Shown: positions 4,751 through 11,344, numbered from the stretch's first letter. The stretch: 13,543 nucleotides of DNA from a virus (IMGVR_UViG_2657245483_000004); one strand, 5' to 3'. The notes: generated by a model from the letters alone, not told the origin. Program-made: numbers and translations.

Positions 4751-4808
4751 AAAAAGGGCGGCAGAGCAGTCACGGAGTAAAACTGATACCGCCAAACGTC
4801 ACCAGAAA
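4751..4808 (-). ncRNA. dicF: DicF small regulatory RNA
   Basis: Minus-strand sequence TTTCTGGTGACGTTTGGCGGTATCAGTTTTACTCCGTGACTGCTCTGCCGCCCTTTTT matches recalled DicF, including the 3' GC stem plus T-run (plus 4751-4770). Positioned between ydfC and dicB. Confidence 0.8.
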
Positions 4809-5148
4809 ATTGATAACAGAGGGCGTTGCAGCGGGGTTGTCACTTAAGCGTATGGTCAACCTGACAACCCGGTGTCCTCAACGGGGAAGAAATAACCCCG
4901 CCATACTTACCGCCGCACCATTTCGCGGGTTGCCACAACCGGAAGCGCACGGTCGACGAAAATTTAACGACAGGCTATCTATGAACCAGCTACCTCGCCG
5001 TGCGCTTTCGCGTTATGGTCTGACTTTTCAGGGAAATATCCTTTCAGTAAACTGTCAGTGCCGGATGCTCACCCGTGTCCGGCGCACGCACTCCACCTCA
5101 CCCGTGGAGAACTCCTTAATTACCAACCTTAGCTTCGTTGGTTAGCTA

Positions 5149-5367
5149 TTAACGCGGGTATGTAATCATTCTGGCAATGCTTAATGCCGCTGCTTTTTCC
5201 AGATTGGTGATATCCTGCTCCAGAGCGGACAGATTTTCAGCCTGCTTAGCCCTGGCTTCATTGGCCCATTTCAGATCCTGCGCTGCATTAATTTTCTGGC
5301 GCATCCACTCATAAAGTTCATCATCGGTATAGTCTGGCGCGATGATGACGGGTTCTCGTTTCTGCAT
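5149..5367 (-). CDS. ydfC: YdfC-like small protein (dicB operon)
   Basis: Track ORF, 72 aa. GAGGAA SD lies upstream of the ATG at 5365-5367. Operon position and recalled sequence match Qin YdfC. Confidence 0.75.
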   Translation of the reverse strand: MQKREPVIIAPDYTDDELYEWMRQKINAAQDLKWANEARAKQAENLSALEQDITNLEKAAALSIARMITYPR

Positions 5368-8539: not shown

Positions 8540-8962
8540 GTGGCAAAAGTTTTTACACAAGAAGAGCGAGAAAAAATTAAAGGGCAGGTTGTTGAACTCG
8601 TACGCCAGAGTGGGCGTGAGACGTTACGGCAACTGGAAGTCAAGACAGGTGCGACAAGATATCTGATGAGCGTTCTCGCAAGAGAGCTGGTTGCCAGCGG
8701 CGATGTATACAACTCCGGCTACGGGTTATTCCCCTCTGAACAGGCGCGTAAGGACTGGCAAAACGCCCGCAAAAAACTCTCGAGGGCAAAGGTGAAGAAA
8801 CCTGCTGTGGTTGATCCGGACCTTATCTGGTCATCACCTGACGGAGAAATACGTCGCTACGACAGTCGCCTAAACATAATCTGTCGCGAGTGCCGGAAGA
8901 GTGAAGCTATGCAGCGTGTACTGGCTTTCTATCAGGGTAATTTTCAGGAGGCGGTACTGTGA
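8540..8962 (+). CDS. Hypothetical early-region protein (140 aa)
   Basis: Track ORF. GTG start at 8540 preceded by AGGAGGG with a short spacer. Follows the replication initiator in the position where lambdoid phages usually encode a helicase loader, but it is too small and shows no Walker motifs. Confidence 0.55.
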   Translation: MAKVFTQEEREKIKGQVVELVRQSGRETLRQLEVKTGATRYLMSVLARELVASGDVYNSGYGLFPSEQARKDWQNARKKLSRAKVKKPAVVDPDLIWSSPDGEIRRYDSRLNIICRECRKSEAMQRVLAFYQGNFQEAVL

Positions 8963-9652: not shown

Positions 9653-9821
9653 TTTTGGTTCAACTAAATACAACGTCAGTTTTGAAGAATGGCATGAACT
9701 GTTAATGGACTATGCAGAGTTACGTGGTGGCAGTGCTGCTGATGCTGAAGCATGGCGTGATGATTATGAAGCAGGAAAAACTCCGGTCGAAGCATATTGT
9801 GATGAGTGGGGCGATGAATGA
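9645..9821 (+). CDS. Acidic small protein (58 aa), function unknown
   Basis: Not in the track (under 60 aa). MADFGSTKYNVSFEEWHELLMDYAELRGGSAADAEAWRDDYEAGKTPVEAYCDEWGDE. GAGGAAG SD 6 nt upstream. Its start overlaps the previous stop (ATGGCTGA) and its stop overlaps the next ATG (ATGA at 9818-9821). Confidence 0.5.
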   Translation: MADFGSTKYNVSFEEWHELLMDYAELRGGSAADAEAWRDDYEAGKTPVEAYCDEWGDE

Positions 9822-10075
9822 GCGAGGTTAATTATCAGGAAGGGCATGAAACGGCGGGGCAAGCAAAAACAGTGGCATGGCGATATCGCTACGTGAAAAA
9901 AAAGGCGTTACGGACTTTCAGGGGAAGTAGTGGTCTGGTGACTGGAAATATGTACCGAAAAAAGAGGATTGTAACGACAGGCCGAACTATGAAATTCAGG
10001 CCTTATTCACTGCCCCGCCAGTCCCGGTTACATCAGAAGAACTGGTTAAAGCTGTGCACTTTTATGAACAACTAA
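9818..10075 (+). CDS. Hypothetical ORF, frame uncertain
   Basis: Track ORF with an ATGA-coupled start, but the translation is unusually basic and low-complexity. A more protein-like alternative frame exists over 9931-10134; see findings. Confidence 0.3.
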   Translation: MSEVNYQEGHETAGQAKTVAWRYRYVKKKALRTFRGSSGLVTGNMYRKKRIVTTGRTMKFRPYSLPRQSRLHQKNWLKLCTFMNN

Positions 10076-10304
10076 AACGCGAAAATCCACCAGCATCCGG
10101 AAACCTGATTACAGATTCCCAGATAAGGCAATGAGCTACCTGGCGCAGAACGGGCTGATAAGTATGGGGAATGTTTTACGATGAATATTTAGACTAAAGA
10201 GTTTGTAACGCTATGTAAGTGATTTTTTCTGGTTTAGATATTTATATGTCCGGCCAAATTGAGGTGTGTTTAAATGTAATTGCACATTGATTGTAGGAGG
10301 AATA

Positions 10305-10484
10305 ATGAAAAACGCATTGCAGTTTTTGTTTGTTGCGTTCTGGTTGTTCGTATCATGTATGCCCATCATCTTCACAGCAAGGTATATGGAAAAAGTTGAT
10401 GTTTTGATATTAATATTTGGATATATAAATGCCCTTTTTTTAGGGGTGTTCATGGCGGTCATGTGCATTGAATACTGGCGGTAA
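10305..10484 (+). CDS. Small membrane protein (59 aa, two predicted transmembrane helices)
   Basis: MKNALQFLFVAFWLFVSCMPIIFTARYMEKVDVLILIFGYINALFLGVFMAVMCIEYWR. AGGAGG lies 5 nt upstream of ATG 10305. Two hydrophobic stretches. Sits in a visibly AT-rich islet. The antisense track ORF 10211..10468 lacks an SD. Confidence 0.55.
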   Translation: MKNALQFLFVAFWLFVSCMPIIFTARYMEKVDVLILIFGYINALFLGVFMAVMCIEYWR

Positions 10485-10539
10485 ATACAGCGAACGCCAT
10501 TGGTTTAGTTGGATATTTACTGTGCCGGACAAAAACGGT

Positions 10540-10567
10540 TTGCGGGGAAATCTTAGTTAAGTAGAAT
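10540..10567 (+). promoter_or_regulatory. Candidate promoter of the hok mRNA
   Basis: TTGCGG (10540-10545), 16-bp spacer, TAGAAT (10562-10567). The predicted 5' end near 10573 begins the GCGGGTGCTTGAGG element that is complementary to the 3' end. Confidence 0.45.
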
Positions 10568-10611
10568 GACTGCGGGTGCTTGAGGCTATCTGTCTCAGGC
10601 ATGAACACCAA

Positions 10612-10683
10612 AAGGCAGATAGAGAAAAGCCCCAGTTAACATTACGCGTCCTGCAAGACGCTTAACATTAATCTGAGGCCATA
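10612..10683 (-). ncRNA. Putative Sok-like antisense RNA (approximate bounds)
   Basis: Minus-strand promoter-like TTGACC (plus 10714-10719), 18-bp spacer, TAATCT. The transcript would be antisense to the mok start and leader. A minus-strand hairpin (GCGTC-ttgcag-GACGC) is followed by a T-rich stretch. Inferred by analogy with hok/sok loci; ends not determined. Confidence 0.3.
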
Positions 10684-10686
10684 TCT

Positions 10687-10746
10687 ATGCGACACATAGA
10701 GATTAGCCTCTTACGGACCGAAAGGTCAAGGAGAAGCAGGCTATGA
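10687..10746 (+). CDS. mok-like leader ORF (19 codons) coupled to hok
   Basis: ATG 10687 ... TGA 10744-10746, overlapping the hok ATG (10743-10745) as ATGA; AAGGAGAAG lies within it just upstream of hok. Shorter than the plasmid R1 mok, so assignment is by position. Confidence 0.4.
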   Translation: MRHIEISLLRTERSRRSRL

Positions 10747-10898
10747 AGCAGCAAAAGGCGATGTTAATCGCCCTGATCGTCATCTGTTTAACCGTCATAG
10801 TGACGGCACTGGTAACGAGGAAAGACCTCTGCGAGGTACGAATCCGAACCGGCCAGACGGAGGTCGCTGTCTTCACAGCTTACGAACCTGAGGAGTAA
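10743..10898 (+). CDS. hokD: Hok-family type I toxin (51 aa), HokD/RelF-like
   Basis: Not in the track (under 60 aa). MKQQKAMLIALIVICLTVIVTALVTRKDLCEVRIRTGQTEVAVFTAYEPEE: single transmembrane helix plus conserved Hok C-terminal part. Matches recalled HokD (RelF). Confidence 0.85.
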   Translation: MKQQKAMLIALIVICLTVIVTALVTRKDLCEVRIRTGQTEVAVFTAYEPEE

Positions 10899-10967
10899 GA
10901 GACCTGGCGGGGGAGAAATCCCTCGCCACCTCTGATGTGTCAGGCATCCTCAACGCACCCGCACGTA

Positions 10968-10993
10968 ACCCGCTTCGGCGGGTTTTGTTTTTT
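10968..10993 (+). terminator. Intrinsic terminator at the 3' end of the hok mRNA
   Basis: ACCCGC-TTCG-GCGGGT stem-loop followed by TTTGTTTTTT. The 3' fold-back element (10948-10962) lies immediately upstream. Confidence 0.6.
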
Positions 10994-11065
10994 CCTGGCA
11001 TTCTGGTTTACAATTCGCACGCCAGCCTGAACAACTGGCACCTGCTGCGCCAGCAGAGACAACCG

Positions 11066-11344
11066 ATGGCGCACGATACCAAATTACACAATTCTAATGA
11101 TTCTGCCGTCTTTGCCAGTAGGTGCGGACGGCGTTTTCACGCATTCAAATCAGACTGGTTCCAGCATCCTCCATGCACTGAAGAGCAGGCGGAATGGATA
11201 ATTCAGTGTTACCGCAGGCGCGGATACGAGGTTAAGAAAGCTCTTAGCCTCGACTACCGTCACTGGATAATCTCAGTCAGACTCCCTTACTCCGAACGCC
11301 CACCGCGTTCATCCCGCACATACCAGCAACGGATCTGGAGGTAA
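11066..11344 (+). CDS. rem: Rem-like small protein
   Basis: MAHDTKLHNSNDSAVFASRCGRRFHAFKSDWFQHPPCTEEQ... The track ORF starts at 10937 inside the hok terminator, so the first ATG downstream of it (11066) is used. Position between hok and the DUF968 gene matches the Qin order as recalled. Weak SD. Confidence 0.5.
   Translation: MAHDTKLHNSNDSAVFASRCGRRFHAFKSDWFQHPPCTEEQAEWIIQCYRRRGYEVKKALSLDYRHWIISVRLPYSERPPRSSRTYQQRIWR

Follow-up and report, generated by a model that had tools for sequence, protein, structure and literature searches.

A putative small membrane protein gene in a replacement cassette upstream of hokD in Qin-type prophages of E. coli

Directly upstream of the hok/sok toxin-antitoxin locus of a lambdoid prophage lies a short AT-rich islet with a small open reading frame, and two related blocks of about 30 bp had been noticed on either side of the frame. 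The locus raises the question of whether the frame is a gene, what its product could do next to a toxin, and whether the two blocks have anything to do with the arrival or the regulation of the islet. The window, that is the whole stretch of 13,543 nucleotides that was analysed, represents a lambdoid prophage of the Qin type from E. coli. A match to the small RNA DicF at 4756-4807 on the minus strand (Rfam RF00039, 76.7 bits) confirmed the Qin-type dicBF region, and near-identical chromosomal copies are annotated with dicB, ydfA-C, replication genes, hokD, a DUF968 protein, RusA and an antiterminator. The open reading frame, referred to as ORF59, closes the early-right (nin) region immediately before hokD; in Qin/Rac-type lambdoid prophages it is the last small gene of that region. 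Coordinates are collected in Table 1.

Table 1. Features of the islet and its flanks, counted from the first nucleotide of the window.
Feature	Position	Strand	Basis or remark
Upstream nin-region gene, conserved 3' end ...MSYLAQNGLISMGNVLR followed by the stop	10133-10184	+	Stop TGA 10182-10184; left shared flank
Three-codon remnant ATG AAT ATT TAG	10181-10192	+	ATG overlaps the upstream stop (ATGA); exact start point of Family A
AT-rich islet, replacement cassette of about 342 nt	10185-10526	+	Alignment with L139; stands in for an 81-nt Family A ORF
Antisense 85-aa ORF, spurious, 'hornerin' in two phage GenBank records (ON470612, ON470619)	10211-10468	-	Record annotation
Upstream block, CTGGTTTAGATATTTATATGTCCGGCCAAA	10229-10258	+	4 variable sites in 30 nt, 21 haplotypes
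Shine-Dalgarno site AGGAGG	10295-10300	+	Sequence; 4 nt before the ORF59 ATG
ORF59, predicted 59-aa two-helix inner-membrane protein, MKNALQFLFVAFWLFVSCMPIIFTARYMEKVDVLILIFGYINALFLGVFMAVMCIEYWR	10305-10484	+	ATG 10305, TAA 10482-10484, 59 codons
T7 homopolymer in ORF59, frameshift-prone	10435-10441	+	Shifted clusters P0019, P0021, P0024, P0025
Downstream block, TTGGTTTAGTTGGATATTTACTGTGCCGGACAAA	10500-10533	+	Spans the right junction; ends 6 nt before the hok -35
hok promoter	10539-10567	+	Read from sequence; -35 TTGCGG 10540-10545 (or TTTGCG 10539-10544), -10 TAGAAT 10562-10567
hokD/sok type I toxin-antitoxin locus, intact	10574-10898	+	Rfam RF01794, 106.7 bits

The gene upstream of the islet (9818-10184) is a pseudogene here and is labelled 'frameshifted; internal stop' by PGAP in strain MS6198, which carries the identical prophage. 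Its C-terminus, NGLIS.EDVLR followed by the stop, and the string TTTTACGATGA are common to other prophages. The N-terminal part of the gene is highly mosaic among prophages and the last 17 or so codons are conserved; many related loci are longer by about 57 nucleotides near 10098-10111, where the extra DNA is bordered by copies of a 14-nt repeat (CGGAAACCTGATTA). On the other side of the islet, the sok/hok RNA match spans 10574-10745 and the hok coding sequence occupies 10743-10898, its product being named HokD by PGAP in identical genomes. The hok promoter is conserved in other hok loci. In many islet-bearing prophages (L002 and L060-L090, roughly half the IMG/VR loci with the islet) homology to the window stops at 10744, base two of the hok start codon (ATG at 10743). 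Mobile-element/transposase genes are found beyond the equivalent position (annotation of PhiR42_1), and in these loci hok is disrupted and ORF59 intact.

The original prediction of a small frame with a near-consensus Shine-Dalgarno site and two hydrophobic helices, in DNA more AT-rich than its neighbours, was borne out on all three points. The ribosome binding site and the start and stop codons were found at the positions given in Table 1, with one site in the Shine-Dalgarno sequence, 10298, changed from A to G in four of 21 haplotypes. AlphaFold2 predicted a helical hairpin with helices at residues 3-24 and 31-58 (mean pLDDT 83.7), the GRAVY value was 1.31, and both termini probably face the cytoplasm. 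The GC content of the islet was 0.353, compared to 0.47 in the 500 nt to the left and 0.51 to the right; along the sequence it stayed at 0.35-0.375 over 10100-10500 and at 0.45-0.58 on either side.

Relatives of ORF59 were sought at increasing depth. Word-indexed searches returned copies of at least 90% identity from E. coli and Shigella only, together with truncated or frameshifted variants. Three loci were found in a scan of GTDB species representatives, all of them in Escherichia or Shigella and one of them in an error-laden assembly. A full HMMER scan of 1.84 billion representatives gave near-identical E. coli and Shigella copies and one diverged subfamily, P0037/P0043, of 59 residues and 41% identity to ORF59 with no indels. 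Starts and stops of ORF59 and the P0043 type were aligned and 19 columns were invariant. Between the subfamilies, W13, S17, C18, P20, I21, I22, T24, F38, G39, N42, A43, L44, E56, W58 and R59 were unchanged, and the corresponding motifs W13, S17-C18-x-P20-I21-I22-x-T24, F38-G39-x-x-N42-A43-L44 and E56-x-W58-R59 were present in both subfamilies in a ten-sequence alignment. A family consisting of the window type and the P0043 type is proposed on the basis of this alignment.

The comparison of the two types also bears on coding status. At the DNA level they were 60% identical, with 25, 16 and 31 differences at codon positions 1, 2 and 3, respectively. Synonymous sites were saturated (pS 0.72), pN was 0.33 and dN/dS about 0.19, and the plus frame was the sole frame open in both sequences. 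Because of the equal length, the lack of indels, the dN/dS ratio, the conservation in the paralog and the open plus frame, ORF59 is concluded to be a genuine coding gene. An in-frame stop five codons before the ATG of the paralog fixes the start of the 59-residue product and rules out a GTG start giving 72 residues. The antisense frame annotated as 'hornerin' contains two stops in the paralog, indicating a mis-annotation. ORF59 was left unannotated by RefSeq PGAP in 60 of 60 rows sampled from 1571 matching records. The islet was present in 1570 of 5426 complete E. coli genomes, and the peptide strings did not occur in the searchable literature.

The paralog P0043 occupies the decayed remnant of a prophage at the Rac attachment site, flanked by ttcA and uspF. 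Its surroundings there are an integrase pseudogene, a DUF1627 fragment and a frameshifted ABC permease. The remnant was found in 1045 of the 5426 genomes, including the type strain ATCC 11775, and the paralog was left unannotated by RefSeq in every row sampled. In L175 the intact frame (GC 0.32) lies at 5001-5180 and a hok fragment at 5235-5300. The order of the remnant is a piece matching 8842-8944 of the window (75% identity, E = 1e-12), the ORF59 homolog and a 3' fragment of hok matching 10811-10876 (80% identity, E = 1e-11). This order is colinear with the window, and the adjacency of ORF59 and hok is therefore taken to be ancestral. The hok fragment lacks the promoter, sok and the N-terminal helix, and the small gene has outlived hok at this locus. 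A scan of the paralog locus for promoters and terminators gave counts equal to those of shuffled sequences. Two related genes for 59-residue membrane proteins have accordingly been overlooked by RefSeq in the sampled records; their inclusion would put right the annotation of a prophage region that is common and for which two phage GenBank records use the wrong strand.

How the islet came to its present place was examined by alignment with relatives. In L139, the left flank matches the window through ...TTTTACGATGA (window 10184) and the right flank is near-identical from GGAYAAAAACGG (10527), with two small differences up to about 10680. Between these shared flanks L139 carries an unrelated 27-residue, one-helix ORF (Family A, MTWPEAFTT.GIAMA.ALVVYS.CRWG). 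Since the flanks are the same and the DNA between them is unrelated, the islet is a mosaic replacement cassette, exchanged at exact gene boundaries. The left junction, 10184/10185, falls in the ATGA stop/start overlap of the upstream gene, and the right one, 10526/10527, where the alternative ORF has its stop codon, shortly before the hok -35. At least 617 genomes have the Family A allele together with both flanks. When 10200-10535 was used as query with an identity threshold of 95%, 1571 records matched; 18 of them covered less than 80% of the query, and the one examined was an IS1 truncation. In other prophage hok loci homology begins only at about 10527, 10531 or 10555.

The idea of a small inserted cassette bounded by repeats therefore held in so far as the islet is a discrete unit, with junctions that lie elsewhere than at the repeats. 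The proposed comparison with prophages lacking the islet did yield relatives with the same flanks, but the site in them holds the Family A ORF and is not empty. Relatives showed a replacement that is not bounded by repeats, the outcome named beforehand as counting against a repeat-bounded indel. Three candidate boundary or ancestry cases were rejected as well. L080, in which the match starts at 10237 inside the upstream block, carries an IS1 insertion, and H180/L004, with the downstream block only, is an IS1 truncation. A descent of the blocks and the 3' end of ORF59 from the 3' end of Family A, as diverged copies, was considered from the shared ATGGCGGT and the C-termini ...CRWG and ...EYWR, each before the stop; local alignments of five Family A alleles with the islet scored at or below shuffled sequences and a common origin with Family A was rejected. 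In its novel joints at gene ends, near-identical flanks and unrelated insert, the islet is a textbook example of lambdoid module exchange, with no boundary repeats. Such exchange at gene boundaries has reportedly been described for lambdoid phages by Juhala et al. in 2000 and Clark et al. in 2001.

Function was approached through databases and through the expression signals of the locus. Sequence searches with ORF59 in Pfam, PHROGs, NCBIfam, PADLOC and PDB gave nothing above noise, and a Foldseek comparison with viral structures yielded nothing beyond generic helical hairpins (E of 0.89 or higher throughout). A simple consensus scan of both strands of 9800-11100 found no promoter-like site. 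The scan also missed the accepted hok promoter and is thus insensitive, so a weak promoter of ORF59 is possible. There was no terminator between ORF59 and hok, the sole terminator in 9800-11100 being that of hok at 10967-10984. Since neither a promoter nor a terminator of its own was found, ORF59 is most likely carried on the early-right transcript with read-through into hok. Transcription would then take place within the early-right operon when the prophage is induced, or by read-through, and translation would start from the strong Shine-Dalgarno site. The protein would act as a dispensable accessory factor at the inner membrane; its size, topology and location point to likely roles in modulating a membrane protein of the host or the phage, or in excluding other phages. 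The probability that ORF59 is a hairpin inner-membrane protein of 59 residues, left unannotated by RefSeq, transcribed with the early-right genes and serving as a dispensable accessory factor, is put at roughly 0.6. On these grounds ORF59 appears to be an overlooked addition to the accessory small membrane proteins of prophages, placed in a mosaic slot, and together with its paralog it offers small-protein research a conserved and testable candidate.

An accessory role invites comparison with the lambdoid morons, accessory genes that are said to have been described by Juhala et al. in 2000, and with HK97 gp15, which according to Cumby et al. in 2012 reportedly mediates superinfection exclusion. 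ORF59 resembles these genes in being small, hydrophobic, predicted to be dispensable and divergent in base composition (see the GC values above), and in its patchy distribution among a mosaic phage group and its confinement to one host genus. It differs from a moron in having no detected promoter and terminator of its own, with no promoter-like site in the scan and only the terminator of hok. The flanks are the same with and without ORF59, but relatives have another small ORF between them, so that ORF59 replaces a frame and is not inserted into an empty site. No sequence similarity or significant fold similarity was seen between ORF59 and any known phage protein. Class II holins and pinholins such as S21 share with ORF59 two transmembrane helices in a small phage protein. 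ORF59 differs from them in lacking a charged C-terminal tail (it ends ...IEYWR), in its location in the nin region, outside the lysis cassette, and in the lack of a family match. In the identical prophage of strain MS6198, an annotated class II holin lies about 1.2 kb past the right end of the window.

The position directly before hok could suggest that the protein works with Hok. This was explored in a sample of 84 hok loci, 80 from IMG/VR and four others. An intact small hydrophobic ORF was found directly upstream of the hok promoter in 54 of them (about 64%): 15 loci held ORF59, 17 Family A, 8 Family B and 14 Family C. Remnants of an ORF were present in 13 of the 84 loci and no small ORF in 17. 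Judged by sequence, ORF59, Family A and Families B/C are at least three unrelated families. Family A (MTWPEAFTTVGIAMAVALVVYSICRWG) has 27 residues and a single helix (MTWPEAF..VYSICRW[GR]). It is located at 2419-2502 of L093 (phage 933W, in whose record it is unannotated), 2423-2506 of L007 and 907-990 of L139, and its ATG overlaps the upstream stop (ATGA) while its end lies a few nucleotides before the hok -35. Families B and C are related one-helix ORFs of 29-34 residues, with ...AIYCLAVVLMDRLSD (...AIYCL.VVLMDRL[GS][ND]), as at 2363-2467 of L008 and 2388-2477 of L009. PGAP annotates only some of the B/C ORFs, as hypothetical proteins (WP_001278454.1). The pN/pS ratio was about 0.29 for Family A (10 alleles) and about 0.45 for Family C, and the slot ORFs A and B/C are apparently under purifying selection. 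They share with ORF59 the position, the hydrophobicity and the short length, but have no detectable sequence relationship to it and one helix instead of two. Family A is coupled translationally to the upstream gene through the ATGA, whereas ORF59 has its own Shine-Dalgarno site and lies 120 nt past the stop.

Two further observations were made on Family B. An identification with YdfW of K-12 (both 49 aa) was rejected, the ydfW translation being an unrelated basic protein. A perfect 22-bp palindrome, CGATATGGGAATTCCCATATCG, at 2476-2497 of L008 separates the Family B ORF from the hok promoter and is kept in some loci that no longer have the ORF (e.g. L111).

A partnership, in which ORF59 and the unrelated one-helix ORFs would act with Hok as membrane partner, immunity factor or timer of the Hok-assisted lysis observed when prophages are induced, draws on the frequency of occupied slots, on the pN/pS ratios of Families A and C and on the adjacency kept at the diverged paralog locus. 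Induction activates prophage hokW in a manner that depends on RecA, by a trigger that is unknown (PMC8621323), which fits the same idea. At the paralog locus, however, hok is a dead 3' fragment and the ORF59 homolog is intact in 1045 genomes; the protein hence does not need Hok, which argues against strict dependence. The 17 hok loci without any small ORF point the same way, and the adjacency may merely reflect the end of the nin operon. Plasmid hok/sok is not known to have such a small ORF, which also counts against a partnership. Taken together, a direct cooperation of ORF59 and the other slot ORFs with Hok is considered rather unlikely. The wider proposal, that the slot before prophage hok is a dedicated site for small membrane proteins cooperating with Hok and co-expressed by read-through on induction, is considered unlikely. 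Under that proposal the co-expressed protein would tune the insertion of Hok or the timing of Hok-assisted lysis, and the slot proteins could, if it were true, supply the trigger or partner of the RecA-dependent activation of HokW (PMC8621323). The recurrence of unrelated small hydrophobic ORFs before hok is in any case a lead on how hok/sok is wired into prophage induction.

The neighbourhood of hok could alternatively mean that ORF59 is itself a type I-like membrane toxin, whose silencing would depend on a small RNA (antisense or divergent) or on a structured leader. ORF59 has the size (at most about 60 residues), the hydrophobicity, the inner-membrane targeting and the prophage location of membrane type I toxins, it adjoins a bona fide member of this class, and no other function is known for it. 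Resemblance to Hok/Gef (PF01848; sok RF01794) ends there, as ORF59 has two helices and not one, an exposed near-consensus Shine-Dalgarno site unlike that of typical type I toxins, and no match to Hok/Gef, Ldr, Ibs, TisB or any other toxin family in Pfam, NCBIfam and PADLOC. The RNA elements of such a system were sought in several ways. A permissive Rfam search of 9900-10700 returned only sok and nothing in the islet. The folding energies of the leader and both antisense stretches showed no excess over shuffled sequences (z from -0.59 to +1.07), and the z-score of the spacer between ORF59 and hok was near 0. An antisense RNA was not found by Rfam, by the minus-strand promoter and terminator scan or by folding (z about 0 to +1), these scans being crude. 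No antisense RNA, structured leader or fold-back element of the kind known from type I toxins was thus detected for ORF59, and the consensus scan showed promoter-like or terminator-like sites on neither strand of the islet. The paralog is intact in a decayed remnant without a recognisable partner. A silenced type I-like toxin is accordingly regarded as quite unlikely, and action as a stand-alone toxin as less likely than an accessory role in the membrane, which is the preferred reading.

A different objection to an accessory membrane protein is that ORF59 may be unexpressed or non-functional, the islet being AT-rich filler or xenogeneically silenced DNA with a decaying frame. The complete lack of annotation in the rows sampled and the pseudogene state of the upstream gene could be read in this way, and so could the variation within the lineage. 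Among 21 haplotypes, seven of 180 sites varied in ORF59, six of the changes being nonsynonymous, all conservative, and one synonymous. This 6:1 ratio alone shows no purifying selection. Frameshift variants at the T7 tract, which the paralog lacks, are fairly common among database clusters, the four shifted clusters listed in Table 1 having 3 to 24 members each. The shifted copies may reflect lineages losing the gene, phase variation or sequencing errors in the homopolymer. Variable sites in ORF59 were on the other hand about half as dense as in the flanking intergenic DNA (18 of 210 sites; Fisher p = 0.065), a comparison that by itself is weak evidence. The frame was less variable than its flanks in the paralog lineage too, but paralog loci were fetched by exact protein identity and are biased, so polymorphism within the paralog was kept out of the evidence. 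The strong Shine-Dalgarno site and, above all, the equal length, the 19 invariant residues and the dN/dS of about 0.19 at saturated synonymous sites argue against decay, and a non-functional frame is judged improbable.

The two blocks were the most conspicuous element of the original prediction. The downstream string has 34 nt and occupies 10500-10533, not 10500-10530 as first given. It does lie just before the hok promoter, as claimed. The similarity of the blocks is present, but weak and gapped. The pair aligns only with a 4-nt gap, and the ungapped core of 25 nt has 72% identity. Local alignment of the two intergenic stretches scored 25 compared to 15.5 ± 2.5 for dinucleotide shuffles, a score reached by 14 of 2000 shuffles (about 0.7%); among 2932 random pairs of real window segments, 4 reached it. 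The similarity is real but weak, modestly above chance, for a pair picked post hoc from a 13.5-kb window. In the whole window there are exactly two copies of the motif TGGTTTAG-N(0-6)-ATATTTA. Among the fetched loci this motif is confined to islet-bearing ones, at the same two positions, and it was found in none of the 80 fetched loci without the islet, including hok loci with Families A, B and C. The blocks do not bracket the islet; the upstream block lies 45 nt inside it, and the downstream block makes up its right end and extends beyond the junction by 7 nt. The two flanks of the paralog frame gave a score of 14 compared to a null of 14.6 ± 2.3 and show no such repeat. With 4 variable sites in 30 nt and 2-3 in 34 nt among the 21 haplotypes, the blocks vary at least as much as ORF59 and are no better conserved. 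The consensus scan gave no promoter match after the upstream block.

Despite a similarity above that of shuffles, a motif occurring exactly twice and a downstream copy 6 nt from the hok -35, a role of the blocks as ends or scars of an inserted cassette, or as a duplicated regulatory element for ORF59 and hok, is very improbable and largely refuted by junctions that lie elsewhere, with only the 18 low-coverage records among 1571 and an IS1 truncation in the one examined, by the lack of any block copy in hok loci with other alleles, by the absence of the repeat at the paralog locus, by block variability and by the missing promoter match. The blocks are instead lineage-specific, weakly similar inner parts of the islet, and nothing was found to indicate that they have a regulatory effect. 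This negative outcome matters too, as the repeat that drew attention to the locus plays no structural role.

A last observation concerns the assemblies. L092, at first a candidate for a diverged homolog of ORF59 (53% identity), turned out to be an indel-riddled assembly of the same sequence. L090-L092 (CP182557, CP182556 and CP178302), which come from Shigella flexneri SFBU0723 and SFBU1023 and E. coli ECMA0423 and are GTDB 'species representative' genomes, all show dense small indels in the region. This suggests uncorrected long-read assemblies and not real divergence.
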